Below are positions 8,301-36,980 of a stretch of DNA of 64,000 bases, in pieces. Origin of the DNA: a virus; IMG/VR virus record IMGVR_UViG_3300037258_000147, positions 40,681 to 104,680 of that record; one strand, given 5' to 3'. Position 1 is the first letter of the stretch. Every line of letters starts with the position of its first letter. The notes beneath the pieces are model-generated. The model ran no database searches and had not been told where the DNA came from. It saw only the letters and a program-made list of their open reading frames with translations. Both the position numbers and the translations under genes were made by a program.

Positions 8301-8304
8301 TCAA

Positions 8305-8655
8305 TCACACTGTCCAGTAAAGATACAAAACGGTTCCAGTCGCAGTTAAACCTGTGACAGCGAAATCTCTCCAAGTAAAAGTTCCGAGCGGTTCTGTCGG
8401 TTCGTCCGAATATAAAATAGAGCGCGCGCCTACGGAGGCGGCCACGGGCAGCGGTGGGTACAAATTAATCGAATCGGATGGGGCCGTAATGGTTACAGTT
8501 CCAGCAGACGAGGCTCCGCCCGTCCCGACTACGAGAACTAATTTGTAGACACGAATTCCTGTGGTATACCCGGCATTTTTGACAGCCGTTATATTGCGCC
8601 ATGACGTGGTATCAGTATCCAGAGTCATGGGCTGGTTCAAAGGTTGGTTAGCCAA
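8305..8655 (-). CDS. Hypothetical virion-type protein
   Basis: 116 aa beta-rich, GAGG RBS. Confidence 0.65.
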   Translation of the reverse strand: MANQPLNQPMTLDTDTTSWRNITAVKNAGYTTGIRVYKLVLVVGTGGASSAGTVTITAPSDSINLYPPLPVAASVGARSILYSDEPTEPLGTFTWRDFAVTGLTATGTVLYLYWTV

Positions 8656-8664
8656 GGTTACCTC

Positions 8665-8874
8665 TTATAAATCAAAATGATGGCGGATAGCTTGCTTCAG
8701 TTTGGATATAACCGCCTGAAAGTGTACCTGAAGACGCGGCTCAGCCAAATCTCTGGCAACCAACAGATCGCCGAGCCAGTCTTTTAATTCTTGTTCTACG
8801 TCGGAGAGAATAAGGGTTCGGTCCCAAGCCCATAGACAGGCTAAAAGTGCTATGACTAAAAATACGAGCCACAT
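8665..8874 (-). CDS. Small membrane protein
   Basis: N-terminal hydrophobic helix, GGAGG RBS. Confidence 0.6.
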   Translation of the reverse strand: MWLVFLVIALLACLWAWDRTLILSDVEQELKDWLGDLLVARDLAEPRLQVHFQAVISKLKQAIRHHFDL

Positions 8875-8898
8875 ATTCCCTCCGACGGTTGGGTTTAA

Positions 8899-9552
8899 TT
8901 ACAGACGGTTGATAACAAATTCGGTCAATGTTAGGGAAGCCCCAATAGTAGTAGCCCAAGTAAACGTCGGGAAGAAGTTTAGGTCGGACGATCCTACGGA
9001 AGTAATGCTGGCAGTCGTAATTGCTCCGGTTCTTGTTGCCCCGATGGAATAGAACACGGGAAGATTGGCCGAATTCAATTGCTGCGAAGCCGAATCCCAG
9101 ATAAGCTGAGTCGTGAAACTGAAATTGGTGGAAACGGAGGTACTAACCGTAGTTGCCCCAGCCGAAGATACACCATTAATTCCAGTACCGCTTGGACCGT
9201 GAGTCAACAACTGAGCATATGTTGAAGACGTAACTCCGCTGGTAAGAACCGCATTGGACGCCTGATACAGCTTAACGGTTAGTGTGCTGGTTCCCGCTGG
9301 TCCGGTTACTTTACCGGCAATCTTAACTTCAAACGGGTGACCATCAAATTCTCCGCCCGCAATATCAGGAGAAACTCCCTGCCACAAGACTACGGGGTAG
9401 GTTGAAGTTCCTAGGGGGAGAGTAGGAGAAGGAAGTCCCGGGTAGTATCCGGAAGTGTTAGGAGCAAGCAGTGCTGTTTCTGTCAGTCCGGAGTATTGAG
9501 ACAGCGGAACTGGGTAACTGTAAATGCCGACTACGGTGTCTTGGCGTGCCAT
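8899..9552 (-). CDS. Hypothetical virion-type protein
   Basis: Probable start MARQDTVVG at 9552; Ser/Thr-rich beta protein. Confidence 0.65.
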   Translation of the reverse strand: MARQDTVVGIYSYPVPLSQYSGLTETALLAPNTSGYYPGLPSPTLPLGTSTYPVVLWQGVSPDIAGGEFDGHPFEVKIAGKVTGPAGTSTLTVKLYQASNAVLTSGVTSSTYAQLLTHGPSGTGINGVSSAGATTVSTSVSTNFSFTTQLIWDSASQQLNSANLPVFYSIGATRTGAITTASITSVGSSDLNFFPTFTWATTIGASLTLTEFVINRL

Positions 9553-9715
9553 TTTTATTATCCTTTGTGGGGTTTTTGACCGACTTGAAGAAGGGGCTCG
9601 GCCTGCCCCACGGTGGTGCAAAACGCCCGCATACTGGGGGCTAATATTTTGTCCACAAAAATGGACAATGTTGTATTGCAAAACTCTAGTTTTAAGGGGG
9701 TTTTGTTATGGAAGA

Positions 9716-9790
9716 TGGAGCGAAGCAGGGGAATCCGACCCCTTTCTCTGGTTTGGAAGACCAGGGCAACAAGCAATATACCAGCTTCGC
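9716..9790 (-). tRNA. tRNA-Gly(TCC)
   Basis: GCGAAGC/GCTTCGC acceptor, CTGGT-CTTCCAA-ACCAG arm, CCA. Confidence 0.85.
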
Positions 9791-9794
9791 AAAT

Positions 9795-9872
9795 TGGTCC
9801 CCGAAGGGTGAATTGAACACCCGATCTTTCGATTATCGGTCGAATGCTTTAAGCCAACTAAGCTATTCGGGG
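9795..9872 (-). tRNA. tRNA-Ile(GAT)
   Basis: TTCGA-CCGATAA-TCGAA arm, cloverleaf, CCA. Confidence 0.85.
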
Positions 9873-9873
9873 A

Positions 9874-9951
9874 TGGTACCAGAGACTGGATTCGAACCAG
9901 TGAAATTTTCTTTGTAGGAGAAACGGTTTAGACCACTCACACCACTCTGGC
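9874..9951 (-). tRNA. tRNA-Val(TAC)
   Basis: TTTCT-CCTACAA-AGAAA arm, TTCGAAT loop, CCA. Confidence 0.85.
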
Positions 9952-9956
9952 AAATA

Positions 9957-10032
9957 TGGTGCTCTCGGCTAGGCTCGAACTAGCATATCCATTTACGGTA
10001 CTTACCTTCGGAGGGTAAGCCGATACGGGAGC
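9957..10032 (-). tRNA. D-armless tRNA-like gene, anticodon CCG (Arg)
   Basis: GCTCCCG-TATCGG-CTTACC-CTCCGAA-GGTAAG-16 nt-GCTAG-TTCGAGC-CTAGC-CGAGAGC-ACCA. Confidence 0.7.
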
Positions 10033-10040
10033 AAAATTTT

Positions 10041-10130
10041 TACAGCGGGCCAATGCAATCCAGAACTCGTCAGTTCTTCGTGCCCCTAAGTCGTTAGACA
10101 TGGACCATTGAATTATGCGCCCCCGCTGTA
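10041..10130 (-). ncRNA. Orphan structured RNA
   Basis: 9-bp closing stem TACAGCGGG/CCCGCTGTA with internal hairpins, between tRNAs. Confidence 0.45.
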
Positions 10131-10133
10131 ACT

Positions 10134-10209
10134 TGGAACCGCTGGCCAGACTCGAACTGGCATCTCCTCTTACTCTGTCTCGTTTAGGAAACGAGTGAGA
10201 TACAGCGGC
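10134..10209 (-). tRNA. D-armless tRNA-like gene, anticodon CCT (Arg)
   Basis: GCCGCTG-TATCTCA-CTCGT-TTCCTAA-ACGAG-17 nt-GCCAG-TTCGAGT-CTGGC-CAGCGGT-TCCA. Confidence 0.7.
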
Positions 10210-10213
10210 AAAA

Positions 10214-10289
10214 TGGAGGCCCCGGAGAGATTCAAACTCCCGACCAATCGGGTAGAAACCGATGACTCTGTTCACTGAGTTACGAGGCC
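10214..10289 (-). tRNA. tRNA-Arg(TCT)
   Basis: ATCGG-TTTCTAC-CCGAT arm, cloverleaf, CCA. Confidence 0.85.
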
Positions 10290-10293
10290 GAAA

Positions 10294-10806
10294 TTAATAA
10301 GTTCTAAGAAGTCTAATGATTTGGGCAGAGTCGGCGAACTTTATCCATTCCCCTTCAGCTAGGTGAACATCAAATCTTTCTAGTAGCCCCTTTTCTGCGG
10401 AGCGTCTATCCAAACAAAACTCGTAGTTCTTGATGTAAAAAGCCTTATGCGGATCGTAGGTTTGATACGAAGCAAGCCTATCCTCAGTGTCAACCGTCAT
10501 TCCAATCTTCAAATAATCTGGCCATGTCGGGTTGGCAATGATGTAGACTTGGCCTTCTTTGCAATCTTTCGGCTTGCATCCTCTGGAGAATTTCAATTTT
10601 AGTAAATTTAAGCCGTGTATCTTCCTAGCCAAATTATAATCAAATTTTTTATTTCCTCCGATGCTCAAAGTTCCGTAAACTTTAACAGACTCAGATATCA
10701 TCTCTTCTGTTATATCAAAAGCAGAATATGGAGGTATTATACCGCGTTCGGACAGAATTTCTATCGTCTTTAGGCTTTTTTCACTAGGATTGCTCAAAGG
10801 ACTCAT
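10294..10806 (-). CDS. T5orf172/GIY-YIG-like endonuclease
   Basis: GQVYIIANP..YLKIGMT...RL..YQT...GEW motifs. Confidence 0.8.
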   Translation of the reverse strand: MSPLSNPSEKSLKTIEILSERGIIPPYSAFDITEEMISESVKVYGTLSIGGNKKFDYNLARKIHGLNLLKLKFSRGCKPKDCKEGQVYIIANPTWPDYLKIGMTVDTEDRLASYQTYDPHKAFYIKNYEFCLDRRSAEKGLLERFDVHLAEGEWIKFADSAQIIRLLRTY

Positions 10807-10835
10807 CCCTTTTCTAAAGTTAAACCAACTAGAAT

Positions 10836-10909
10836 TGGTACCTCGCTAGAGAATCGAACTCTATCCAACCGGGGTAAAAACCCGATATGCACCATCACAC
10901 TCACGAGGC
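10836..10909 (-). tRNA. tRNA-Lys(TTT)
   Basis: TCGGG-TTTTTAC-CCCGG arm, CCA. Confidence 0.75.
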
Positions 10910-10949
10910 GTCTTTTATCACTCTCGGATTTTGGTGTCATAACTGCTTC

Positions 10950-11174
10950 TCAGCCAACTAGGTAGTCCGTGGTTTTTAATCCCTGTTCGATACGGAACGC
11001 TTCATTCCGTTTCCACGTCTTGCTTATCGACCAACCTAATAGCCTAATCAAACAATATTGAAATTTTGAACCGGAGAAAGCTGTACCATCGTTTGTCCCA
11101 AACAAAATTACATGGGCCGGATCAGCCACAGACCCTCTCCAAAATATTCTTGCCTGCGTTGGTCCTGTGTACAT
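10950..11174 (-). CDS. Hypothetical protein within tRNA array
   Basis: 74 aa, TAGGAG RBS. Confidence 0.55.
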   Translation of the reverse strand: MYTGPTQARIFWRGSVADPAHVILFGTNDGTAFSGSKFQYCLIRLLGWSISKTWKRNEAFRIEQGLKTTDYLVG

Positions 11175-11192
11175 TTTTAACTACTCCTAAAA

Positions 11193-11267
11193 TGGTGGGT
11201 TGCCAGATAATCGAAATCTGTTCTTCCGGGTAAGAACCGGATGCTTCGCCAGCAAAGCTTGCAACCC
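11193..11267 (-). tRNA. tRNA-Lys(CTT)
   Basis: TCCGG-TTCTTAC-CCGGA arm, CCA. Confidence 0.85.
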
Positions 11268-11273
11268 GTTAAC

Positions 11274-11714
11274 TTACGGTATTGTGGTTACGGTAACAGT
11301 AACTGTTGTAGTAGTTCCACTTGGGGTAGAAGGAACGCCTGGAGTTCCGGGGACTACTACGAAAGCTGGAGCAGAAGAACCGCTTACTGCCGATGCTTGT
11401 TGAGTTTGAACTACGTAACAATAACTCGTTCCTGATGTTACGGATGAATCGACATATGCGGTTGCCTGCGGAGCAGAAACCCCAACTGAAGAATAAGACG
11501 ACGCAGTTAGTGGGCAAGTTGTTCCGGTAACTGGGGTTTTAGAAACCAGAAAAGTACAAGGTGCCGAAGTGCTGCATCCGGACCAACCAGGGGAAGCAGC
11601 AGGAACTGTCCAACTCAAATTAACCTGAAAAGAAGTCTGAGTTATCTGAGACTCGGCAGAACTTCCAAACACCAGCAGTCCAGCAAAAACCACAAACAGG
11701 AATATCTTCTTCAC
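11274..11714 (-). CDS. Secreted fibronectin-III-like protein
   Basis: GTG start KKIFLFVVFAGLLVFGSSAESQ signal peptide; VNLSWT...YVDSSV.SG.SYCYVVQ FN3 pattern. Confidence 0.75.
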   Translation of the reverse strand: MKKIFLFVVFAGLLVFGSSAESQITQTSFQVNLSWTVPAASPGWSGCSTSAPCTFLVSKTPVTGTTCPLTASSYSSVGVSAPQATAYVDSSVTSGTSYCYVVQTQQASAVSGSSAPAFVVVPGTPGVPSTPSGTTTTVTVTVTTIP

Positions 11715-11757
11715 GTGTTTTAGCCTTTCATGTCGTTCAAAATTCTTGAATATCGAA

Positions 11758-11849
11758 TGGTGGGCGACGAGGGAATCGAACCCGTCTGGCATCTCTCATC
11801 TAGAGACTACAGGGTTTATAAGGCCCCGCCCCGTCCTACGGCATCGCCC
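11758..11849 (-). tRNA. Atypical long-variable-arm tRNA, anticodon TAT (Ile/AUA)
   Basis: GGGCGAT acceptor, tiny CCGT-AGG-ACGG D hairpin, CTTATAA loop, ~23-nt variable arm, bulged T-stem, ACCA. Confidence 0.65.
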
Positions 11850-11870
11850 AAACTTGTCCATTTAATGGAC

Positions 11871-11941
11871 TGGTCCCGAAGCGTGGAATCAAACCACTCA
11901 CCTGGTCTTATGAGAACCAGTGCTGAATCATCAGCCTCGGG
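11871..11941 (-). tRNA. Short atypical tRNA, anticodon CAT (Met/Ile2)
   Basis: 71 nt, reduced D-arm, CTGGTT-CTCATAA-GACCAG, CCA. Confidence 0.65.
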
Positions 11942-11948
11942 TAAAACA

Positions 11949-12022
11949 TGGCAGGAGATGAAGGATTTGAACCCTCGAATCCCGGGTTGGAGCCGGGCGG
12001 TTTCCGTTAAGCCTAATCTCCC
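11949..12022 (-). tRNA. tRNA-Trp(CCA)
   Basis: CCCGG-CTCCAAC-CCGGG arm, GCCA end. Confidence 0.85.
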
Positions 12023-12441
12023 AAAAGATACTCGGATGCATTTTTTAGTAGAGAAGGATCGTCCTTAAAATGACCAATCCCTAGATTGCAACTCCTGCAC
12101 AACAATCCTCTTACTTTTCCCGTAAGATGATCGTGATCAACATGCAAAGGTTTGTCGTCTTTCTTACCACAAATCTTACAAATCCCATTCTGCTGCGAAA
12201 ATAAGAATAGGTATTCCGCTCCCGTCATCCCATATCTATTTGCTATTTTATAGCTAGGATGTGCTTTGTTCCATTTGTTTGCTTTAGAAATATATTTTTC
12301 TATGTTTCTGAGATAATGTTCTCTACGATAGTCGGCCTGGCAATCTCGGCATTGTTTATGCCTTATCCCTCTCGCTTCATCTCTAAAAGCAAAATCTTGT
12401 TCTTCGTCTTTAGAAGTATGACATTTAGAACAAATACTCAT
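12013..12441 (-). CDS. Endonuclease VII-family (His-Me) homing-type endonuclease
   Basis: YGMT..EY...QNGICKIC...LHVDHDH.TGKVRGLLCRSCNLGIG. Confidence 0.9.
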   Translation of the reverse strand: MSICSKCHTSKDEEQDFAFRDEARGIRHKQCRDCQADYRREHYLRNIEKYISKANKWNKAHPSYKIANRYGMTGAEYLFLFSQQNGICKICGKKDDKPLHVDHDHLTGKVRGLLCRSCNLGIGHFKDDPSLLKNASEYLLGD

Positions 12442-12456
12442 TTTATTATCAAGAAG

Positions 12457-12533
12457 TGGTAGCCCTAGTAGGATTCGAACCTACACTATGACTCGTTCGT
12501 AGCGAGTATGACTTTCCAGTTGCCGATAGGGCC
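12457..12533 (-). tRNA. tRNA-Arg(ACG)
   Basis: ACTCG-CTACGAA-CGAGT arm, CCA. Confidence 0.85.
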
Positions 12534-12541
12534 GTAAAACT

Positions 12542-12615
12542 TGGTCTCCGAGCGGGGATTCAAACCCCGGACGCCGCGCCCCAAACGCGGAATGTTTTCA
12601 CTACACTACTCAGAG
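12542..12615 (-). tRNA. tRNA-Pro(TGG)
   Basis: CCGCG-TTTGGGG-CGCGG arm, CCA. Confidence 0.85.
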
Positions 12616-12620
12616 ATAAA

Positions 12621-12699
12621 TGGTGCGGGTGGCAGGATTTCAACCTGCGATCTCCTGTTCCCGAAACAGGCGCGTTAAGGCAAACTTCGCTACACCCAC
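12621..12699 (-). tRNA. tRNA-Pro(CGG)
   Basis: CCTGT-TTCGGGA-ACAGG arm, CCA. Confidence 0.8.
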
Positions 12700-12710
12700 T
12701 TAAACTTTTC

Positions 12711-12805
12711 GGCCACGATAAAACTCTGTTCCCCCGCTTCCGACTAGGTTCGAACCTTCTGGGCGTTGGGTGTCTTGTTTTATCTTCGCTCTTTCGAACT
12801 AGGCC
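12711..12805 (-). ncRNA. Orphan rod-like structured RNA
   Basis: GGCC ends, GATAAAAC/GTTTTATC stem, apical AGG-TTCGAA-CCT. Confidence 0.45.
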
Positions 12806-12814
12806 AAAACTTTA

Positions 12815-12889
12815 TGGTGGACTCGGGCGGACTTGAACCGCCATCGCGCAAGGCTTCAACATGCCGCTCTACATTGGAGCTACGAGTCC
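12815..12889 (-). tRNA. tRNA-Phe(GAA)
   Basis: GCATG-TTGAAGC-CTTGC arm, canonical D/T arms, CCA. Confidence 0.85.
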
Positions 12890-12898
12890 GAATTTTGA

Positions 12899-13007
12899 TA
12901 TACGACTTGAGGTCGCTGCGACTCCCGTAGGGGCCACTCTTTCTTGTGGTGTCAGCCAAAGCAACCCGATAGACATCTGACAATGCCCGTCAAATTACTC
13001 CCGTATA
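12899..13007 (-). ncRNA. Orphan structured RNA
   Basis: TATACG/CGTATA closing stem; TGTCAG/CTGACA and CCAC/GTGG internal stems. Confidence 0.4.
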
Positions 13008-13070
13008 AACTTGGTGGACCTGTTGTCATCCCTCCGCGCTTTCGCTACGCGGCCCTATGAGGGTTTACGA

Positions 13071-13146
13071 TGGTGGACCCGGAGGGATTGCAACCCTCAA
13101 AACTACATTGCAGGTGTAGTATGATCGCATGTTTCATCACGGGCCC
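13071..13146 (-). tRNA. tRNA-Ala(TGC)
   Basis: G3:U70 pair, CTACA-CCTGCAA-TGTAG arm, CCA. Confidence 0.85.
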
Positions 13147-13396
13147 GTTTAAATCCAGTATACATTCCATCTTTTGCTAGAAAATGTTCAAGATCGTGGC
13201 AATTAGGACACAAAATTTCCAAATTGGACGGATCATTATTTGCGTGACTACGATCCTTATGGTGAACCTTCAAAATTCCAACTTGTTCATCATATCCGCA
13301 TCGATTGCATTTCGAGGGATAGTTTCTTCTTGCAATTTCCCGATAAGTCCCCTCTGGGGGGGGGGGGGGCGACCACCGAAGCAAGATATCCACCAT
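13103..13396 (-). pseudogene. Truncated HNH endonuclease with a C14 run at its 5' end
   Basis: CNRCG...VHHKD....NN...NLEILCPNCH; G14 at 13356-13369 on +; 3' end runs into tRNA-Ala. Confidence 0.6.
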
Positions 13397-13471
13397 CTGT
13401 AGAACTTCTACGCTACAGAACGTTCGTCACTCCAGAGTTTAGCATCCTCTGACACTTTCAAAAAGTCCCGC

Positions 13472-13626
13472 TGGTCCTCACCAATACCCGAGTCGAACGG
13501 GAAAGCGGGTTTGTCGCAGCCTACCATTAGAAGACGGTCCAAAGACCGGAGAGATTCGAACTCTCATTTACGACCCACATCAAGCCAGACATCCTATCCA
13601 CTAGACGACGCTCCGACTCGGGGACT
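13472..13626 (-). ncRNA. Degenerate/compound tRNA-like element (two D/T-like modules, ends ACCA)
   Basis: T-arms GAGAG-TTCGAAT-CTCTC and CCCG-TTCGACT-CGGG; D-like GTCTAGTGGATAGGAT and TTCTAATGGTAGG; no paired anticodon arm. Confidence 0.4.
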
Positions 13627-13699
13627 GTTTACTCGTGTTTGCATCCACGTCAGTCCTTGCTCAGAACGGGATGATTCGAACATCCGTCCTCTGGCACCT

Positions 13700-13775
13700 T
13701 GGAGGGAAGGGAGCGAGTCGAACGCTCTAAAGACATGATCCACAATCATGCGCCGCACCGTTTGGCTTCCAACCC
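13700..13775 (-). tRNA. tRNA-His(GTG)
   Basis: CATGA-TTGTGGA-TCATG arm; two U-U mismatches in acceptor. Confidence 0.75.
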
Positions 13776-13994
13776 AATTTTTGTTGTCCATTTTATGGAC
13801 TAAATTTGAGGACCAGACCGTTGGACACCTCGTTGCTTATTGCGGTCGGCTTGATCTCTTTTATGCGGAAGCCGAGTGGTAATCTTCCGCAGAGCCAAAC
13901 TCACGGTGTAAATTTGTCGGTGCTCTCCCTGGTGTCACACCACTGGTTAGGCAAAAGGTATTAGCTCTGCTACCGGGCAAGGTGTCGCCCATTA

Positions 13995-14065
13995 TGGAGC
14001 CGATGTACGGAGTTCAACCGTCAGGAACTCTTTACAGGAGAGTGCCGCTTGCGAAGCACATCGGC
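13995..14065 (-). tRNA. Short tRNA-Thr(TGT) with reduced D-arm
   Basis: GCCGATG/CATCGGC acceptor, GCTT-CGC-AAGC D hairpin, ACTCT-CCTGTAA-AGAGT. Confidence 0.65.
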
Positions 14066-14149
14066 TAACTTTTCGGTGGTATCTTCCCTCAAACCCTGAT
14101 ACTAGGTCCCTCATCTGAGTCCTTGCAGACCCCAGCACCGATGAAATTC

Positions 14150-14308
14150 GAGTGATGACGAATCGGACTTGATACCGATTCCTACTTTCGCGGTTGCGCC
14201 GCTACCATGCCACTAGGGAATCTCTTAATGTACACTCAGTTCTACCCCGGTAGGAGAAGCCCTAACACCTTCAAAGCTGCACGTCCATCCGTGCGGATCG
14301 TCATCACC
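14150..14308 (-). ncRNA. ~160-nt tRNA-like RNA with expanded interior
   Basis: 9-bp GTGATGACG/CGTCATCAC stem, GCACG-GATGGA-CGTGC D-like arm, AATCGG-TATCAAGT-CCGATT T-like arm; begins just after a promoter. Confidence 0.6.
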
Positions 14309-14314
14309 AAATAC

Positions 14315-14343
14315 ATTGTCTCACAACTCTAAAAACTTGTCAA
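14315..14343 (-). promoter_or_regulatory. Sigma70-type promoter inside tRNA array
   Basis: TTGACA-N17-GACAAT. Confidence 0.65.
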
Positions 14344-14355
14344 CCTAAATTTTGT

Positions 14356-14664
14356 CTAAATCGTATCGTTTTGTTCTAAAGACTCTAACAGCCACAAATC
14401 TACAGACAGTTGGGTCCGATCTTCTTGGTACCCGATCTCCTGTCCATTTTCTGGAAGCAGTTTTTCCGCCAAGATTAGAGTTGGTTCTATTAAAGAATCT
14501 AACCAAGGGTAGTCTGTTCTGGCCCGATCAAGTTCGGCCATATCCGCTAAAATCAGATTGCCGCTGTCCATTTGTGAAAATATATCAGGAAGAGGCGGCG
14601 CTGGTTTTTGCGCTTTGTGGTGATGGAAGCCGAGGATCACATATAACAAACCTACTGAAATCAT
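14356..14664 (-). CDS. Hypothetical protein with N-terminal hydrophobic segment
   Basis: Probable start MISVGLLYVILGF at 14664, since the upstream in-frame part overlaps tRNA-Thr. Confidence 0.55.
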   Translation of the reverse strand: MISVGLLYVILGFHHHKAQKPAPPLPDIFSQMDSGNLILADMAELDRARTDYPWLDSLIEPTLILAEKLLPENGQEIGYQEDRTQLSVDLWLLESLEQNDTI

Positions 14665-14682
14665 AGCTTCCTTTTCAAAGAG

Positions 14683-14754
14683 AGGTCGAAGTCGGAACTG
14701 CCCCGACACCGTATCCATACCAGGGATACATTCTTCTAGTTAAACTATTCGACC
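14683..14754 (-). tRNA. tRNA-Thr(GGT), no encoded CCA
   Basis: GGTCGAA/TTCGACC acceptor, TATCC-CTGGTAT-GGATA arm. Confidence 0.75.
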
Positions 14755-14758
14755 AAAT

Positions 14759-14834
14759 TGGAGCACCTGACCGGAGTCGAACCGGTGACTTCCTCTTTAC
14801 GGGAGAGGCGCTGTGCCGTCTGAGCCACAGGTGC
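14759..14834 (-). tRNA. tRNA-Thr(CGT)
   Basis: CCTCT-CCCGTAA-AGAGG arm, CCA. Confidence 0.85.
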
Positions 14835-14836
14835 AG

Positions 14837-14891
14837 TAAGGTATCATAAAAGTGACCTTAAGTAGGTTAAGGTGTCATATATGACACCTTA
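14837..14891. repeat. Tandem pair of 24-bp palindromes
   Basis: TAAGGTATCATAAAAGTGACCTTA (14837) and perfect TAAGGTGTCATATATGACACCTTA (14868). Confidence 0.7.
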
Positions 14892-15047
14892 GTCCATTAT
14901 ATGGACTGAAATTTATGCCAACTCGGTGGACGAAAGTTCGAGGGGGGTGTCTAATCGTCTACCTCTGGTCGCGACTAGTTCTAGGCCGCTGGCTGGAGCT
15001 TCTTCGCCTTATCACAGACCCTTATCCGCAAAAAGGTTGAATAGAAA

Positions 15048-15122
15048 TGGAGCGGGCGACGGGTCTTGCCCCCGCAACCTTTGCATTGGCAACGCAATGT
15101 TCTGCAATTGAACTACGCCCGC
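15048..15122 (-). tRNA. tRNA-Gly(GCC)
   Basis: TTGCG-TTGCCAA-TGCAA arm, CCA. Confidence 0.85.
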
Positions 15123-15126
15123 GAAA

Positions 15127-15202
15127 TGGCAGGGAGTACAGGAATCGAACCTGTCTGGGTGGGTCCAAAGGCCACCGCCTGAAACCAATCGGCCAACTCC
15201 CT
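15127..15202 (-). tRNA. tRNA-Gln(TTG)
   Basis: CTTTGGA loop, GCCA end. Confidence 0.8.
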
Positions 15203-15210
15203 GTAAAACT

Positions 15211-15284
15211 TGGCACCCCGTCGTGGATTCGAACCACGATACTCTGCTTCAGAAACAGAAGTCCTGCCGTTGAACGAACGGGGT
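15211..15284 (-). tRNA. tRNA-Gln(CTG)
   Basis: TCTGT-TTCTGAA-GCAGA arm, GCCA. Confidence 0.85.
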
Positions 15285-15289
15285 AAATT

Positions 15290-15364
15290 TGGCTCCTCCC
15301 CTCCGACTCGAACGGAGACCTTTTTGGTTAACTGCCAAAAGCAATGCCATTATGCTAGAGAGGA
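15290..15364 (-). tRNA. tRNA-Asn(GTT)
   Basis: TCCTCTC acceptor, TTTGG-CAGTTAA-CCAAA arm (A33). Confidence 0.8.
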
Positions 15365-15370
15365 ATAAAA

Positions 15371-15889
15371 TCAAAAAGTGCGAAGAGTTCTGATGATTTC
15401 CAGGGAATTAGAATGCTTAATCCATTCTCCCTCTTCGAGGTGAAAACCAAAATCATCCAACAACTTCTTTTCTGCTTCTCTTCTATCAAGAACGAATTCG
15501 TAATTCTTGATGTAAAAAGCCTTGAAAGGATCATACGTCTGATACGAATCCAGTCTCGCTTCCGAATCTACAGACATGCCTATCTTGATGTGATCCGGCC
15601 AGGCTGGGTTACCGATCAAGTAGATTTGTCCTTCTTTACAATCCTTCGGTTTGGCTCCTCGATGAAACTTCAATCTTAAGAGTTCTAGGCCCGCTAATTT
15701 TCTGGCGTACCTATATTGGAATTTTCCATTACTTTTCGGGGCAAGACTACCATAGATTCGGATGTACTCGGAAAGCATTTCTTCTGTAATATCGAAGGTT
15801 GTGTACGGAGGGACAATATCTGCATCCGAGAGAAGTCTTACAGTTTCTGCAATTCTTTCTGTTCTTCCTATTTCTTTAGGGTTGCTCAA
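15371..15889 (-). CDS. T5orf172/GIY-YIG-like endonuclease, paralog of 10294..10806
   Basis: Shared PPY..FDITEEM.SE, KPKDCKEGQ.Y, YQTYDP.KAFYIKNYEF, EGEWIK. Confidence 0.8.
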   Translation of the reverse strand: MSNPKEIGRTERIAETVRLLSDADIVPPYTTFDITEEMLSEYIRIYGSLAPKSNGKFQYRYARKLAGLELLRLKFHRGAKPKDCKEGQIYLIGNPAWPDHIKIGMSVDSEARLDSYQTYDPFKAFYIKNYEFVLDRREAEKKLLDDFGFHLEEGEWIKHSNSLEIIRTLRTF

Positions 15890-15912
15890 CGGCTCTCCCC
15901 TTTTGAATTTTA

Positions 15913-15989
15913 TGGTAGGGATGGTGAGGCTCTAACTCACTAGGACGTGGGTGAAGGCCACGGCACTCGAACACTTTGTATTCATCCCC
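15913..15989 (-). tRNA. tRNA-Glu(TTC)
   Basis: CGTGG-CCTTCAC-CCACG arm; atypical D and T loops. Confidence 0.7.
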
Positions 15990-15997
15990 ATAAATTT

Positions 15998-16126
15998 GTG
16001 CGACTTACTCGGTGATCGAGTCGAACGATCCCCCGCTACTTTTGCATTCACGGGTGACAACCAGGGTTCCGTCCTCAGCATCAGATTTGCTGTCTTCCGC
16101 CTTGTAGTCCTAATGGACAGCCGCAC
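15998..16126 (-). ncRNA. ~130-nt RNA with tRNA-type T-arm (tRNA mimic/Y-RNA-like candidate)
   Basis: GTGCGGC/GTCGCAC closing stem, GATCG-TTCGACT-CGATC T-arm, several hairpins, no CCA. Confidence 0.5.
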
Positions 16127-16142
16127 AAACTATTTTAAAACT

Positions 16143-16823
16143 TTAAAACGCTACATCACTCCAGGTCAGTTGAATATTTTTGTACAAAGTATTCAATCCT
16201 CCAGGTACTAAAGTTTCTGTTTGCAACTGAATAGCCGCGACTGAAGACCAGTTTGAGGTTTGACTAGGTAGTTCTTGCAAATTACTCGGGACTGAAAATT
16301 CTGTGGCTCCCCAAGTAGTAGACAGCATACTGAACTTGTTGTTCGGTACGTCTATGAAATATCTGAAACTTATTGGCGTCCAAGTGTCAGGAGCCAGAGT
16401 TGGTTTAAACCCAGTGTCTATCCAGCCCGGAGGGGATGTGTCGATCTGCCAGCTTCCGGTAGACAAATTCAACTGTGAACTAAAGTTGAAGACATTAGGA
16501 ATCTGTGTACTTGCGTTGGGGGCTGATTGCGAAACTACTTTTACGTCAATCTCCAGCCGTCCCAAAACAGGAAGATCAAAAGACGAAACGTAAACTTGTA
16601 AATCCAATCCCAGATATGGTAAAAAAATTCCGGGGATACTAGGGACCGGGCGCTTATTGGTTACTAACGCCCCACCAAAAGCTGAGGTACTTACGTTGGT
16701 TACCTTCAGAGCCCCAGACGGAAGTAACGTCGGGATAAAAGCTGAAGAAGGAATAGGATTTACGCTTGCTCCGGTTTGTACTACCCACGTGCCTTTTTCC
16801 AGTCCATCATCAATTACCCGCAT
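16143..16823 (-). CDS. Hypothetical beta-sandwich (lectin-like) protein
   Basis: 226 aa, TAGGAG RBS, beta-rich composition. Confidence 0.65.
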   Translation of the reverse strand: MRVIDDGLEKGTWVVQTGASVNPIPSSAFIPTLLPSGALKVTNVSTSAFGGALVTNKRPVPSIPGIFLPYLGLDLQVYVSSFDLPVLGRLEIDVKVVSQSAPNASTQIPNVFNFSSQLNLSTGSWQIDTSPPGWIDTGFKPTLAPDTWTPISFRYFIDVPNNKFSMLSTTWGATEFSVPSNLQELPSQTSNWSSVAAIQLQTETLVPGGLNTLYKNIQLTWSDVAF

Positions 16824-16834
16824 TAGTCTCCTAT

Positions 16835-16909
16835 TGGTAGCCTACCAGAGAATCAAACTCTGTTCTCGATCTTGAGAAAATCGCATCCTAATCAGTAGAA
16901 GAGTAGGCC
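16835..16909 (-). tRNA. tRNA-Glu(CTC)
   Basis: CGATT-TTCTCAA-GATCG arm, CCA. Confidence 0.8.
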
Positions 16910-16955
16910 GTTTTATATTCCACGCCAACGAATTACTGTCATGGTTACTCCTAAA

Positions 16956-17030
16956 TGGCGGGACCGACGAGAATCAAACTCGCATCTTTCTCCTCGACAG
17001 GGAGACATCTTATCATTAGACTACGGTCCC
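16956..17030 (-). tRNA. tRNA-Asp(GTC)
   Basis: TCTCC-CTGTCGA-GGAGA arm, GCCA. Confidence 0.85.
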
Positions 17031-17033
17031 AAT

Positions 17034-17111
17034 TGGTTGCGGCTCTCGGGAGTTGAACCCGGTATCCCAAGGGTATGAGTCTTGGATGGTCATCCGTTCC
17101 ACTCAGCCGCA
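17034..17111 (-). tRNA. tRNA-Met(CAT), initiator-like acceptor
   Basis: TGCGGCT/AGCCGCA-ACCA, CTCATAC loop. Confidence 0.75.
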
Positions 17112-17726
17112 TCAAAATTTAAAAATTCCTGCATCATATTCCCAATGATGATTTGGACACAAGGGTAGGAGGTTATCAATATCATTGATCTCTCTTATCA
17201 AAGTGTCAGTAGAAAAAGAGGAAACTGATCTAATATGAGCAACGTCAACGTGATTCGAATACCCGCAAACACAGCATTTCTTCTCTTTACCCCCGTCTAG
17301 GTATGTCTGTCTGGCATGTCGTTGAATCGAACTTCTAGCAGATTGATACCCGCCTCTTCGACCAAACAACTCGCCTTTCGTCCACCCCGAAAGTTTCCCA
17401 GTTCTAGTTTTCTTTAAGCCTCGAACTTTCTTGCACTCTTCAGAACAAGTAAACTTTCTTTTAGGAACAGGAGCCCCACAGACCCGACATCTACGAGAAA
17501 TATTCTTGTTTCGTTTCCTTTTCTTAGGAAATTTTGCATTGTTAAAACTCGCAGAACAAGTTCTGTTACAGAACTTCTTTTGTCGAATTTCAGATACTTT
17601 CCTTTTTGGATCAATAGTAATCATTGACAAACAATGCTTACAAAAATTAGGGTTTGCTAAGTACCTTTCCTCCGCTCTCTGCCTTTGCAGTAAAGCGGAG
17701 ACTATCGAACCACTTGATTTTGCCAT
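17112..17726 (-). CDS. HNH endonuclease with Zn-finger repeats
   Basis: FCNRTC, CRVCG...TCSEEC, CCVCGY...VAHI......N...NLLPLCPNHHWEYD. Confidence 0.85.
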   Translation of the reverse strand: MAKSSGSIVSALLQRQRAEERYLANPNFCKHCLSMITIDPKRKVSEIRQKKFCNRTCSASFNNAKFPKKRKRNKNISRRCRVCGAPVPKRKFTCSEECKKVRGLKKTRTGKLSGWTKGELFGRRGGYQSARSSIQRHARQTYLDGGKEKKCCVCGYSNHVDVAHIRSVSSFSTDTLIREINDIDNLLPLCPNHHWEYDAGIFKF

Positions 17727-17805
17727 ACCTAAACGTAAGTTTCCTTTCTCGTATGTTTTATCATACCACAGAAGTCCAGATAATGGAAATCTTTTCTGTG
17801 AAAAA

Positions 17806-17892
17806 TGGTGGGTTGTGTAGGGCTTTAACCTACCATGCTCGAAGGAGCGCCACTTTTACAGAGTGGGAGCCGTACGCCCGGCAATACAACCC
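17806..17892 (-). tRNA. tRNA-Tyr(GTA)
   Basis: CCACT-CTGTAAA-AGTGG arm, long variable arm, CCA. Confidence 0.8.
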
Positions 17893-17897
17893 AAAAA

Positions 17898-17982
17898 TGG
17901 AGGAGAGCAGCCGAATCGAACGGCCATCCCGAAGGAGCCCCGGTTTTCAAGACCGGATGTATCACCATCAACAGTGCTCTCC
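17898..17982 (-). tRNA. tRNA-Ser(TGA), probable 8/4 fold
   Basis: GGAGAGCA/TGCTCTCC 8-bp acceptor, GCCG/CGGC 4-bp T-stem. Confidence 0.8.
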
Positions 17983-18065
17983 GAATATAACATGACAAGT
18001 TATAAAAAGTCAAGGTCCTATATATGGGTCGTTAATCCACTATACGACCTATATATGAACCAAAA

Positions 18066-18153
18066 TGGCGGAAGATGAAGTAATCGAAACCTTGTCCATT
18101 TAATGGACAGCATCGGGTTCGAGCCGATTTGACCGCCTTGGTCGCCATCTTCC
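18066..18153 (-). tRNA. tRNA-Ser(CGA), probable 8/4 fold; variable arm is the GTCC-N7-GGAC palindrome
   Basis: GGAAGATG/CATCTTCC, ATCGG-CTCGAAC-CCGAT, variable arm TGTCCA-TTAAA-TGGACA. Confidence 0.8.
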
Positions 18154-18189
18154 GTTAACTTGGCCATGTTAATTATCATGGCCGTGATA

Positions 18190-18277
18190 TGGCGGATGGG
18201 ACAGGACTCGAACCTGCACATGCTTTCACATGAGCCGACTTTCCAAGCCGGTGCGATACCGTTCCGCTCACCCATCC
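18190..18277 (-). tRNA. tRNA-Ser(GGA)
   Basis: CCGGC-TTGGAAA-GTCGG arm, CATGT-GAAA-GCATG variable arm. Confidence 0.85.
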
Positions 18278-18299
18278 AATTTTTACTGTACAGCAAATA

Positions 18300-18392
18300 T
18301 GGCGGAGAGTGAGGGCTTCGATCCCCCGTGTCCAAATAATGGACAGCCTCTGTTTAGCAAACAGGCACAATACCGGGCTCTGTCAACTCTCC
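18300..18392 (-). tRNA. tRNA-Ser(GCT); variable arm is the GTCC-N7-GGAC palindrome
   Basis: GGAGAGT/ACTCTCC, TTGCTAA loop, variable arm TGTCCA-TTATT-TGGACA. Confidence 0.85.
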
Positions 18393-18398
18393 AAAAAT

Positions 18399-18578
18399 TT
18401 AAACTTTCATTCTCCGGTAGTCTGTCCAAGCTTCTTTTCTTGTACTTCCTATTCCCAGAACTTGTTCCCAACGATCACGGCCTCCTATGGAATAGGGTTT
18501 GGGAGGCAAAAAACCACCAAAGCATACTACGAATCCACTGTTGTCTTCTAAACTACGGCAATAAACTTTGTCAGACAT
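18399..18578 (-). CDS. Small hypothetical protein
   Basis: MSDKVYCRS... with GGAG RBS. Confidence 0.5.
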   Translation of the reverse strand: MSDKVYCRSLEDNSGFVVCFGGFLPPKPYSIGGRDRWEQVLGIGSTRKEAWTDYRRMKV

Positions 18579-18591
18579 TGTTTCTCCAGCT

Positions 18592-18692
18592 TGGTGCGGC
18601 TTCGAGCCGTCAGCGCCAACGGTTGACTCTCCGTAAAACTTTCTTAGTCTAGACTTTGAGTCTAGCAATCTGGACCTTTCGCCGCCGGTCGC
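18592..18692 (-). pseudogene. Degenerate tRNA-Leu(CAA)-like sequence
   Basis: CTAGA-CTCAAAG-TCTAG arm and ACCA end, but poor acceptor and T arm. Confidence 0.4.
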
Positions 18693-18810
18693 CCAGTGGG
18701 GGTTTAGCGCCCAGATAACGCCCCTATCTCGTAACCGTGATTGGCCGCTCCACAATCCTTCGGACTCGGTTATTTGATAATCTATGTGTCAAACACAGTG
18801 CTAAGAAACT

Positions 18811-18886
18811 TGGTCCCCGCGCCCAGATTCGAACTGGGAAAATTACTGGGTTTGAGCCAGTCGCTCTGCCGTTTCGCTACGCGGGG
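18811..18886 (-). tRNA. tRNA-Leu(CAA) with short variable loop
   Basis: ACTGG-CTCAAAC-CCAGT arm, 6-nt variable loop. Confidence 0.8.
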
Positions 18887-18892
18887 GTGATA

Positions 18893-18978
18893 TGGTGGGC
18901 ACGGCGAGACTCGAACTCGCAATCGGTTTTACCCTTCCGGTTTCTAAGACCGGCGCTTTGCCATTTTGCTACGCGCCC
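18893..18978 (-). tRNA. tRNA-Leu(TAG)
   Basis: CCGGT-CTTAGAA-ACCGG arm, long variable arm. Confidence 0.85.
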
Positions 18979-18986
18979 GTAAAATA

Positions 18987-19062
18987 TGGAGGTCCAGATC
19001 GGACTCGAACCGACGATTAAGAGTTTTGCAGACTCTCGCATTTGCCGCTTTGCTACTGGACC
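18987..19062 (-). tRNA. tRNA-Cys(GCA)
   Basis: AGAGT-CTGCAAA-ACTCT arm, U73. Confidence 0.85.
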
Positions 19063-19063
19063 A

Positions 19064-19138
19064 TGGTGCGATAGGAGGGACTCGAACCCTCAGACGCTGG
19101 GTTTTAAATCCAGATGATTTGCCATTCTCTACTATCGC
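19064..19138 (-). tRNA. tRNA-Leu(TAA) with short variable loop
   Basis: TTTAAAA loop, 5-nt variable loop, CCA. Confidence 0.75.
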
Positions 19139-19162
19139 GTGTCCATTATTTGGACTAAATTT

Positions 19163-27042: not shown

Positions 27043-27366
27043 CCTTCGCCGCGCGGTATCCACCGTAAGCGGAGCGTCCGCCGTGGTAGGCGGGGCCGGT
27101 AAATTTAGTCCATTTTTCGGACAAAACTCGTTGACAAGTCTATTTACCCATGATAGGGTGTAACCAAACGAAAAGGGGAAACCATGTTCCTGCTTCTAGT
27201 TGTACTGTTAACCTTCGGCGGTATGCACGGGCCGGTAACTCACCCGAAAACCCCGCCGCTTACCTTTCGCTGGAAATAGACCGTTGCCGGATCGTAACCG
27301 GCTCTCAATGCAGCCGCCTTACGGCGAGAGTCACAAGCCTCTATAAATGCAGAGTGGGGAGGAAAT

Positions 27367-27815: not shown

Positions 27816-28499
27816 ATGAAAATGGATATCAAGAATCTAGAGGATGTGGTTATTTACACATCCGCACTGCTCACAATCAAAGACGCTCTAGTAGAGGCTG
27901 TGTTAAAACGCGCGAACCTGTGCGGCGCGAACCTGTACGGCGCGAACCTGTGCGACGCGAACCTGTGCGACGCGAACCTGTGCGGCGCGAACCTGTACGG
28001 CGCGAACCTGTACGGCGCGAACCTGTGCGGCGCGAACCTGTACGGCGCGAACCTGTACGGCGCGAACCTGTGCGGCGCGGACCTGCGCGGCGCGAACCTG
28101 CGCGGCGCGAACCTGTACGGCGCGGACCTGTACGGCGCGTACCTGAGCGGGACTAAAAATTCAGACATTGCTTTATCTCGGATTCAATTCATCCCGGAAA
28201 CGGGAAGTTTTGAAGCGTGGAAGAAATGCGCGGACGGGGTTATTGTGAAGCTGCTCATCCCCGAAGATGCGGAACGTTCCCACGGAGCAGAACGGAAGTG
28301 CAGAGCCTCCAAAATTGTCGTATTGGATGTATTCGGAGCGGACTACGGCGTATCTGGCGGTGAATATGGAAAGATTGAATACCGCAAAGGGCAAACGGTG
28401 GAGCCAAAAAACGGATGGAACGAGGACCGTTGGACAGTCTGCGGGGCTGGTATCCATTTCTTTCTCACTCGGGCGGAGGCCGAAAACTACGAGTTTTGA
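27816..28499 (+). CDS. Pentapeptide-repeat protein with DUF5758-like C-terminus
   Basis: (ANL[CY]G)n from 15-bp repeats at ~27912-28150; GSF.AWKK...IPEDA.R...RKCRAS...C..GIHFF. Confidence 0.9.
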   Translation: MKMDIKNLEDVVIYTSALLTIKDALVEAVLKRANLCGANLYGANLCDANLCDANLCGANLYGANLYGANLCGANLYGANLYGANLCGADLRGANLRGANLYGADLYGAYLSGTKNSDIALSRIQFIPETGSFEAWKKCADGVIVKLLIPEDAERSHGAERKCRASKIVVLDVFGADYGVSGGEYGKIEYRKGQTVEPKNGWNEDRWTVCGAGIHFFLTRAEAENYEF

Positions 28500-28605: not shown

Positions 28606-30789
28606 ATGAAACTCGTTTCAAACGCAACTACAATCGCAGAGTTCCGCGCAGATGTTCTCCAATACATCGAACTTCGCGCCGAGCAAAACCGAGCGGCTGA
28701 AAGGTCGGTCACCGGAAAGAACATCAAGAAGATGTATATTCATGCCGCGTCTGAGATTCAGTCTATCGCCGATGATCTGCGCTATATGGACTCTGGGAAT
28801 AAGGTAGCGTAATGCGTATTTTCCGGTCTCCAATATCCCGGATCAGTTGGAGGAGCGGGAATTTTCTTACATCCCAGGCGCGATCCTTGTCTGAGGTAAT
28901 CAAGGGTCCGGCTAGACACCTTACGGCAAAGCCGGATTTTGTCTGCGCTGCCTGTACAAAGAATATGCACTACGCATGTGTTAGTAAAAGGTGCGAGTGC
29001 GGAAAGAAGCATTTATGACCCAAAATTTTTCCTTGACAGACCAACTAGGGTTGGCTATAATCATTGTAGCAATTTTGGAGTTGTGGTTTTTGTGGTAACT
29101 GGAATCTGTCCGAAAAATGGACAAAAGAGGGGTTATGGAAATCAAAACCAGCACACTAGGGCCGTCTTGGGACGACTTTGAAACCGCAAGAATGAAAAGG
29201 GAAGACGAAAACGTAGCGCGGCGGGTAGCAGACTACCAGCGGCGCGGCGGATGGTTCGACCAAACCGAAGAGGAATTGTGATAGTCCCTCTGCAATACTG
29301 CTGTGACGCGCCCGGATGTACGCAGGTTCGGACGGATACGAACCGATGGTGGGTCGTCTACACGGGATACCCCAGCCATATCGGAGTGTATACGTGGGAT
29401 CACGCCGAGGCGGATCACAAACTGGACAGCACGGACTCCCGCCACTTCTGCGGCCAAACTCACGCTCTGCAATTCGTATCATCTGAGATGGGGGTAAAAT
29501 GAAACTCTCCTTCGAGGATTTTGTCTACTACTCGGAATGGCTTGAGATAGTTCGGATGGGGAATTTTGTCGGCGAGTATGAATTACGAAAAATTATTCTC
29601 AAGAAAATCCGAGAATTCAGACGAGGCCGCCCACTTTTTGCCGGACCCTACGGGGATAAATCCGCGTGGGCTGGAATGGTCCGCAATTGGTACAAGGCAT
29701 ATGTGGAGGAAGCATGAAACACACGGAGATATTTTATTCTCTCTGCGAGGCCCACACTATTCTGTGTCTAGCCTGCGATAGGGCCGGAAACGCGGCGGAT
29801 GTTTGGTGGATTCCCTTTTTCGGGCGGAACCGCTGGCGAGCCTACCGCACTGCACTCCATGCTATGGAGTACCTGCAAAAACAGGTAGGCGAAGAATACT
29901 CGCTGGCTGTTGAGGAGCTTTGCCAATGACCAATCTTTCAACCAGAAAGTCAAAGTGTATTGTCCAGTTTTCGGACACGATTCGGGAGCGGGGCCGGTTA
30001 CGTGAAGTCATTATGGAGTTCTCACCCTACGGTATTAAAGTCCGACTCAAGGGCATGAGAAGTTCATACGATATTTCCCCGGCCTCTATCTACAACTCTG
30101 CTGTGCTTAAGTTTGTGGCAGCACAAAAATCTGAGAAGAAGGCCAAGAAAGCGGGGAGGAAATGAGGCAAGTGCGAAATAAATTATGGCTGCATAGTGGC
30201 TACCGGATCGGAGAAAACGGATTCATATTTAACCGTCCAGCCTGTCGGTTGTGTAAATTGTTCGACGCCCGAGTTTGCGAAAATAAGTATTGCGTTTTTT
30301 GCTTTGTCGGACTCTTGGAGATTCGGGGGATATGGGGATCGAGACGACGGCGGACTACGGGGGCTATCGTGCGCAGGACTCGAAAGATTTACAGGAACTC
30401 AGTTAGTCCGAAAAATGGACAACCTGAATGACCAATCAGCTAGGCGATCTAACAGCCCGACAAGAAGCCTTACGGCATCTACGTTCCAGATGGATGAAAT
30501 TATTCTTGACTAAGCCCTGGACTTCGGATAACGTAAGGGAGAGAGCTTTGATTTGTGAGAAGATTGTTAAGTGGGGTGCAAAGTGAAAACCTACGAAGTA
30601 AAAGTACCGATTGCCGGACACGCTTATGTTTATGTCGAGGCTGACTCGGAAGAAGAGGCTATCACAACGGCTGTGAGTGCGGCTGAGTTGCAGGATTTAG
30701 GCGGCTGGGAAGCCCTGCGGAAATTCAACATGGGCAACGTCTGTTACTGCCCGCAACCTTGGGAAGCAGAAGCTGCGGAAATGGAATAA
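28606..30789 (+). other. Cluster of small hypothetical genes (28606-28812, 28812-29018, 29135-29281, ~29278-29502, 29499-29717, 29714-29929, 29926-30165, 30162-30431, ~30571-30789)
   Basis: Tightly packed ATGA/TAATG-coupled ORFs. Confidence 0.65.
29033..29061 (+). promoter_or_regulatory. Sigma70-type promoter
   Basis: TTGACA-N17-TATAAT. Confidence 0.8.
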
Positions 30790-30791
30790 CC

Positions 30792-36744: not shown

Positions 36745-36980
36745 AGGTTGTAGTTACTCGGCAGCATATTTTGGATGGAAAGAAAGTCCGCACCCGGGCG
36801 TGTCCAGTCGCCTTGGCTCTCAGAGACTCTGGATGGAAAGAACCGGTTGTGGGGGTTTCTATTTGCTGGGAGGACGGAGTGGGGAAGCCTTTTGTTCTTC
36901 CTCTAAAAGTGCAGAGTTTTACAAACAGATTTGACAACGGACTTCCAGTCGAACCTTTTGAATTCGAGTTGTCCGATTAA
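36741..36980 (+). CDS. Paralog family protein 2
   Basis: HILDG...CPVALAL...FDNG.PVEPFEFE. Confidence 0.75.
   Translation: MKVVVTRQHILDGKKVRTRACPVALALRDSGWKEPVVGVSICWEDGVGKPFVLPLKVQSFTNRFDNGLPVEPFEFELSD

Follow-up and report, generated by a model that had tools for sequence, protein, structure and literature searches.

Two serine tRNA genes of a phage carry, as their long variable arm, a palindrome that is dispersed over the whole phage genome, and the question arises how it came to be there and what reads it. The phage is uncultivated and is known from the virus record IMGVR_UViG_3300037258_000147 (104,680 bp, 47.7% G+C, estimated to be 97% complete; G000 in the following). The window analysed is the right-hand 64 kb of this record (positions 40,681 to 104,680), and the coordinates of G000 features are counted from the first position of the window. 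Recognisable genes of G000 encode a family A DNA polymerase, RecT, an exonuclease, a primase-helicase and an integrase; the gene calls are crude, as they come from a greedy longest-ORF script. Within the early region a protein with pentapeptide repeats and DUF5758 is encoded at 27816-28499 (+). A twister-P1 ribozyme-like match at 27302-27360 (+) lies directly 5' of an ATG at 27367 and reaches 52.2 bits (E = 4.8e-10 over the 3.6 kb searched), under the Rfam threshold of 67.2.

Two tRNA-Ser Genes With a Palindromic Variable Arm

The features on which the following sections are based are:

9716-19138, minus: tRNA array of about 30 tRNA genes
17898-17982 (about), minus: tRNA-Ser(UGA), variable arm UUCG-capped and unlike the motif
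18066-18153, minus: tRNA-Ser(CGA), 8/4-type, 88 nt, encoded CCA, G73 (ARAGORN at the 95% threshold, fold)
18093-18109: whole variable arm of Ser(CGA), a perfect 17-bp palindrome, in tRNA sense TGTCCA-TTAAA-TGGACA
18190-18277, minus: tRNA-Ser(GGA), arm CTCATGTGAAAGCATGT unlike the motif; the orthologue in the related phage G001 has the same arm
18300-18392, minus: tRNA-Ser(GCU), canonical 7/5 form, 93 nt, encoded CCA, G73 (ARAGORN, Rfam, cloverleaf fold)
18329-18345: whole variable arm of Ser(GCU), a perfect 17-bp palindrome, in tRNA sense TGTCCA-TTATT-TGGACA
30759-31865: integrase

Both arms had been described in an earlier, sequence-only reading of this locus and were found exactly as described when read on the minus strand. 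Its statement that the arms of the neighbouring Ser(TGA) and Ser(GGA) genes are unrelated to the motif was likewise borne out by the comparison of the arms. The pattern TGTCCANNNNNTGGACA has two exact matches in the 64-kb window, namely these two arms, against 0.00 expected.

The gene for tRNA-Ser(GCU) is called by ARAGORN with default settings and matches the Rfam family RF00005 with 39.2 bits (threshold 29), which is the second-lowest Rfam score among the tRNAs reported by the window-wide scan; its T loop is non-canonical. The gene for tRNA-Ser(CGA) was found by ARAGORN at the 95% threshold only, with no call by default ARAGORN and no Rfam match even at E<=1, as the default callers miss it because of its 8/4 shape. 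Its sequence folds at minimum energy into a full cloverleaf (-32 kcal/mol, z = -3.2), in which the acceptor stem has 8 bp, the D loop is small and a T stem of 4 bp comes directly after the variable arm. In the fold of positions 18066-18155, GGAAGAUG is paired with CAUCUUCC, and the 4-bp T stem AGGU/ACUU follows immediately. This architecture is a described one: Mukai et al. (PMC5389517) report (8/4) tRNA-Ser species in phage tRNA clusters, in which 8 of the 12 bp of the acceptor branch belong to the acceptor stem and 4 to the T stem, and Ser(CGA) shares with them both stem lengths, the long arm, the Ser anticodon and the location in a phage cluster. That paper does not appear to tie the arm sequence to a dispersed genomic motif (PMC5389517). 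A further non-7/5 architecture in the cluster is suggested by tRNA-Ser(UGA), whose best Rfam match is the selenocysteine model tRNA-Sec (44.7 bits, under that family's threshold of 47).

As read from the folds and from the structures drawn by ARAGORN, both Ser(GCU) and Ser(CGA) possess the Ser anticodon, the long variable arm with a stem of 6-7 bp, G73 and the pairs G1-C72/G2-C71/A3-U70; their 3' ends read G-CCA and the 5' GGA is paired to UCC. No class II synthetase core and no seryl-tRNA synthetase were detected in the phage genome, so that charging would rely on the SerRS of the host. Including the arm, the two tRNAs are 69% identical, which lies inside the range of other non-orthologous Ser tRNA pairs in the clade (57-75%); they are therefore not recent paralogues, and this explanation of the common arm was rejected.

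Copies of the Palindrome in the Genome and in the tRNA Array

The core GTCC-N7-GGAC occurs 41 times in the window, where 0.87 occurrences would be expected (an enrichment of more than 40-fold), and 60 times in the 104,680-bp genome, where other spacings from 0 to 14 give 0-5 copies each. The fuller consensus is (T)GTCC(A/G)-W5-(T/C)GGAC(A). Perfect 17-mers account for four of the 60 genomic copies; two of the four are the tRNA arms, which are also the sole ones in the window. The sites are spaced more evenly than at random (coefficient of variation 0.74-0.81), and close pairs are avoided. Between 25 and 30% of the sites, compared with about 8% of random positions, lie 8-17 nt 5' of a ribosome site with start codon, adjoining the ribosome site; many copies take up the interval from a stop codon to the ribosome site that follows, and several adjoin tRNA 5' ends. 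Fifty-eight sites are situated deep in long ORFs, where all three frames are used (21/24/13). The DNA polymerase gene carries two copies: its start codon (ATG at 36980) is inside the copy GTCCGATTAATGGAC at 36971-36985, and the second copy (38048-38062, residue 355) is an identical 15-mer which occupies the same place in G001, with VRKMD encoded in both phages.

The motif is shared by at least five related phages in IMG/VR (G001, G002, G003, G005 and G006) and is found on many short contigs as well. There are 56 copies in G001 (64% polymerase identity), 53 in G002 (about 52%) and several each in the stretches fetched from G003, G005 and G006. The preferred spacer is genome-specific, being GAATAAT in G001 and AGATAAT in G002. 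Among deposited phages, the only blastn match was a release-factor-domain gene of Tunturiibacter phages. Where flanks could be aligned, 12 of 24 G000 sites have the motif at the same place in G001 and five of 16 at the same place in G002. Coding-region sites which are present in one genome only lie in ungapped alignments, and the sites therefore arise by substitution; a mobile insertion unit, which was considered as well, is not supported, since the coding-region sites align without indels. Judged by these sequence comparisons, it is the nucleotide sequence as such on which selection acts to keep the motif.

Further copies lie in or beside the tRNA array:

9650-9667: one-base-longer variant GTCC-N8-GGAC, 48 nt 3' of Gly-UCC, the last tRNA
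13786-13800: intergenic motif copy, 10 nt 5' of tRNA-His, with a copy at the same relative place in G003
14892-14906: intergenic motif copy between Gly-GCC and Thr-CGU, the same place being occupied in G001
17774-17788: one-mismatch copy GTCCAGATAATGGAA, just 3' of tRNA-Tyr (read from the sequence)
19141-19155: motif copy 2 nt 5' of Leu-UAA, the first tRNA of the array

The array is thus bracketed and punctuated by motif copies. In the relatives, copies are found 1-7 nt 5' of tRNA 5' ends and 4-5 nt 3' of Gly-UCC. The two arm copies are 236 bp apart, with the perfect copy at 19141 at a distance of 811 bp and the one-mismatch copy at 17774 at 320 bp. The copy at 19141-19155 is the 15-mer of the Ser(GCU) arm in inverted orientation, and the spacer AAATAAT/ATTATTT is found in these two copies only. 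A different inverted repeat of 7 bp, GGCCATG-N8-CATGGCC, takes up the stretch that separates Ser(CGA) from Ser(GGA) at 18156-18189.

Variable Arms Within and Outside the Clade

The sequence-only reading had called for a comparison with the Ser arms of related phages, and this was carried out for the motif-bearing relatives G001, G003 and G006. In G001 the gene order is the same (Ser-GCU, Ser-GGA, Ser-CGA, Ser-UGA, Tyr), and its Ser-GGA is 93% identical to Ser(GGA) of the window. None of the Ser tRNA arms of G001 contains the motif, nor does any arm of the Ser tRNAs found in G003 and G006; all are hairpins with GNRA or UUCG tetraloops, which in G003 and G006 consist of G+C-rich stems capped by GAAA, GUAA, GCAA or UUCG. 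Inheritance of the arms within the clade was rejected for these three phages. Moreover, the 3.7-kb stretch of G001 with the Leu-Ser-Tyr block holds no motif copy at all. Over all loci of the clade, two of 163 distinct tRNAs have the motif in the variable arm, and both belong to G000. The D arm of tRNA-Ile(GAU) at L055 1211-1284 (G002) and L166 9121-9194 reads GTCC-AATGATA-GGAC or GTCC-AATGTTA-GGAC; this probably reflects chance similarity in a single orthologous gene, because position 11 (the inner A:T pair) and the A/T spacer misfit the motif.

Patterns made from the flanks of the two motif-bearing tRNAs found no closer relatives among metagenome or viral contigs, and a search with the conserved Ser(GGA) arm yielded G001 and one unrelated phage without the motif only. 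Outside the clade, the fetched IMG/VR loci contain 130 TGTCCA-N5-TGGACA sites, and not one of them is inside a tRNA. The proposal of the sequence-only reading would lose its basis if the same arm were common in tRNA-Ser of genomes lacking the dispersed motif; a scan of 185,579 prokaryote genomes, one per species, for the arm with a canonical T loop behind it gave a single tRNA-Leu, a single tRNA-Sec and no tRNA-Ser, the scan requiring the T loop GTTCRANTC, which is absent from the phage's own two tRNAs. Within this scope the refuting condition was not observed, and the proposal survives. A separate observation concerns the contig L375 (Ga0307376_10001502), an unrelated phage-like sequence without the motif: at 5689-10773, ARAGORN at the 90% threshold calls four Ser tRNAs, three of them with a common CTACC...GGTAG arm, and additionally a tRNA with a CUA (amber) anticodon.

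Random placement of the 60 sites would put about 0.01 of them into the roughly eight long variable arms, and two were seen. Because of this number, and because the tRNAs of the sampled relatives and of the IMG/VR loci and the prokaryote Ser tRNAs with a canonical T loop do not have the arm, the sequence comparisons indicate that the arms are copies of the phage's own element and not inherited tRNA sequence. The arm copies were seen in one genome only, and since no sampled relative has them, the simplest interpretation is that they were gained along the long branch on which this phage lies.

Reading of the Element as Duplex DNA or RNA

The sequence-only reading had left two options, a DNA site written in by selection for site density, or a motif that acts as an RNA hairpin as well. 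The stem is invariant, GTCC/GGAC; other 4-bp stems with the same type of spacer occur 20-25 times per genome, against a Markov expectation of 18-26. An RNA hairpin recognised by its structure only is not supported, as there are no alternative stems. One-mismatch copies mostly change the outermost base and thereby break the pairing, which is the behaviour expected of degenerate half-sites. A duplex site should be indifferent to the orientation of its asymmetric spacer, and in G002 the two orientations are equally frequent before ribosome sites. The core of the motif is symmetric, and the orientation of the asymmetric positions is biased (about 73%) without being strict: on sense strands G5:T11, which would form a G.U wobble pair in RNA, prevails over A5:C11 by 59 to 22 overall and by 22 to 6 deep inside ORFs. 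The strand bias of 59 to 22 fits an RNA hairpin, or a site whose orientation matters, better than a simple symmetric dimer site.

A protein partner was sought among 40 small ORFs, 17 of which are kept in both relatives. Pfam revealed no DNA- or RNA-binding domain in them and no repressor was recognised; the clear domains were a pentapeptide repeat, SSB, DUF1643, endonuclease VII and HNH only. A role as promoter was considered as well. PF00940 (phage RNA polymerase) has no match in the genome, a family for which the control genomes cannot give a match, and a T7-like phage RNA polymerase promoter was discarded, many sites being intragenic and in both orientations. Inspection by eye for a sigma-70-type promoter in the motif gave the -10-like TAAAAT without a consistent -35 partner.

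Proposed Explanation and Alternatives

Our preferred reading, to which we tentatively assign a probability of about 0.4, is that a sequence-specific protein site, putatively read on duplex DNA, was written into the only part of the tRNA gene able to accommodate a 17-bp palindrome. A dyad-symmetric cis-element of 15-17 bp, common to the whole clade and present here in about 60 copies, would be kept by selection at the nucleotide level. The element would most likely be the binding site of a putative sequence-specific protein on duplex DNA, with two TGTCC half-sites about one helical turn apart, comparable to the operator-like repeats of some mycobacteriophages. In two unrelated Ser tRNA genes, the ancestral tetraloop-capped arms would have been overwritten by perfect copies of the element. 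Seryl-tRNA synthetase reads the presence and the shape of the long arm, not its sequence. Engineered tRNAs in which this arm was replaced by a foreign protein-binding hairpin still translate (PMC7590224). A perfect 17-bp palindrome would consequently carry no penalty in the long variable arm, and nowhere else in a tRNA gene, because a stem-loop of suitable size suffices there, SerRS reads the shape, and tRNAs with a foreign hairpin still work. By this, two extra sites would have been gained in the promoter-proximal part of the tRNA operon, and both tRNAs would presumably still be chargeable with serine. The copies and their statistics, the missing counterparts in the relatives and the selection on the element at the nucleotide level are shown by the sequences; the binding protein, its reading of the DNA duplex, the use of the tRNA copies and the charging of the tRNAs are what we infer here. 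That selection writes the site into tRNA genes, as the sequence-only reading had proposed, is plausible in view of the use of all three frames, the gain of sites by substitution and their retention at orthologous places. The interpretation given there is supported in part; the motive that it had named, site density, holds up poorly: neighbouring sites are found at 236, 320 and 811 bp, and the corresponding 3.7 kb of G001 is siteless. A need for the arm sites is not evident, because the local density is already high and the relatives manage without them.

It is alternatively conceivable, though in our view unlikely, that the element is an RNA hairpin, GUCCR-N5-UGGAC, bound by a putative phage protein, and that the two tRNAs are natural "aptamer-tagged" tRNAs. 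Such a protein could sequester or recruit the tRNAs, or the tRNAs could titrate it off mRNA hairpins and act as a timing switch. The bias towards the wobble-compatible G5:U11, which purine loading does not explain and which persists deep in ORFs, speaks for it, as do the many copies in gaps between stop codon and ribosome site or adjoining tRNA 5' ends. The phage also appears to use RNA-level processing before genes, if the sub-threshold twister-P1-like match at 27302-27360 is taken as an indication, and synthetic tRNAs tagged with a hairpin are captured and sequestered by the protein cognate to it (PMC7590224). Yet the stem is always GTCC/GGAC without covariation, the pairing is lost in the one-mismatch copies, a 5-bp stem with an A/U loop makes a weak hairpin, and in G002 both loop orientations stand before genes. 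Furthermore, the loop UUAUU of Ser(GCU) is of a minority, rarer U-rich type, and the relatives with the same element have no tagged tRNA. Quite improbable is the combination in which the putative element-binding protein additionally binds the arm hairpin of mature Ser(GCU) and Ser(CGA), so that the regulator is titrated or the isoacceptors are sequestered.

The arm copies could also be neutral by-products of local copying, gene conversion or biased mutation and repair, tolerated and functionless, which we regard as rather unlikely. Local copying is nevertheless a live alternative, because the Ser(GCU) arm is the inverted 15-mer of the 19141 site 811 bp away and its spacer is found in no other copy; the relatives without arm copies, the high local site density and the arm common to different Ser isoacceptors of another phage point in the same direction. 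Against it, two separate tRNAs with different loops both hold complete copies with A/T-only spacers, and these make up half of the perfect 17-mers of the genome, which number four in all. At other places the element has arisen by selected point substitution and not by copy-and-paste, and neutral arms would be expected to drift via compensatory changes. Highly improbable, finally, is a chance match, or a pair of decaying pseudo-tRNAs which are free to vary. The low Rfam score and non-canonical T loop of Ser(GCU), and the failure of default ARAGORN and Rfam to find Ser(CGA), would agree with decay, but both tRNAs form full cloverleaves with intact acceptor stems, G73 and CCA, and the 8/4 shape is a form already described for phage tRNA-Ser (PMC5389517). 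As for chance, the two arms seen contrast with the approximately 0.01 expected, and no cellular tRNA-Ser with a standard T loop has the arm.

Comparison With Known Systems

Dispersed palindromic repeats are known from phage genomes, and their function is mostly unknown. By analogy, the element appears to resemble most the repeats of Cluster O mycobacteriophages and, less closely, the stoperators of Cluster A. The Cluster O repeats are 17-bp dyad-symmetric sequences, TGTTCGG-NNN-CCGAACA, of which Corndog has 34 copies; about a third lies inside genes, their function is unknown, and they are the predicted target of a dimeric DNA-binding protein (PMC4351075). Both elements occur in tens of copies between genes, near gene starts and inside genes, and consist of invariant inverted repeats around an A/T-rich centre. 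They differ in sequence and spacing, the arms here comprising 4-6 bp and the centre 7 or 5 bp, and in the sense-strand bias and the frequent abutment of ribosome sites seen here; no Cluster O copy in a tRNA arm was reported (PMC4351075). Cluster A stoperators, the sites of the L5 repressor, are asymmetric 13-mers which are bound by a monomer and strictly oriented (PMC9283540). In common with them, the element is present at more than twenty sites genome-wide, partly in short intergenic gaps, in an orientation that appears to correlate in part with transcription, and in a probably temperate phage, as judged for G000 by the integrase at 30759-31865. Unlike the stoperators it is dyad-symmetric, with an orientation bias of about 73% only, many sites lie deep in genes, and no repressor was identified.

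With regard to the tRNAs, the engineered aptamer-tagged tRNAs of PMC7590224 offer a parallel, as in them a short hairpin forms the tip or the whole of a Ser-type long variable arm. Those molecules are synthetic and have a bound protein, whereas the arm described here is natural and known from sequence alone. No report of a dispersed dyad element serving as tRNA arm was found in the literature.

Protein-binding DNA sites within tRNA-coding sequence are familiar from the A and B boxes of eukaryotic RNA polymerase III and from the att sites of integrases, which exploit dyad symmetry or the conserved loops of the D, T or anticodon arms. The present case is different, since here a genome-wide element sits in the unconstrained variable arm.

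To our knowledge, tRNA sequences are usually held to be shaped by translation alone. A genome-wide cis-element which on two independent occasions came to occupy the only unconstrained hairpin of a tRNA would mark the strength of the pressure that acts on this phage at the nucleotide level. As the same 17 nt would exist in two forms, a DNA duplex and an abundant, stable RNA hairpin, the two genes may provide a handle on whether such repeats act at the level of DNA or of RNA. If the RNA is bound, the two tRNAs would be the natural counterpart of engineered aptamer-tagged tRNAs; and should the element-binding protein also hold the mature tRNAs, translation capacity would be coupled to the genome-wide control circuit of the phage.
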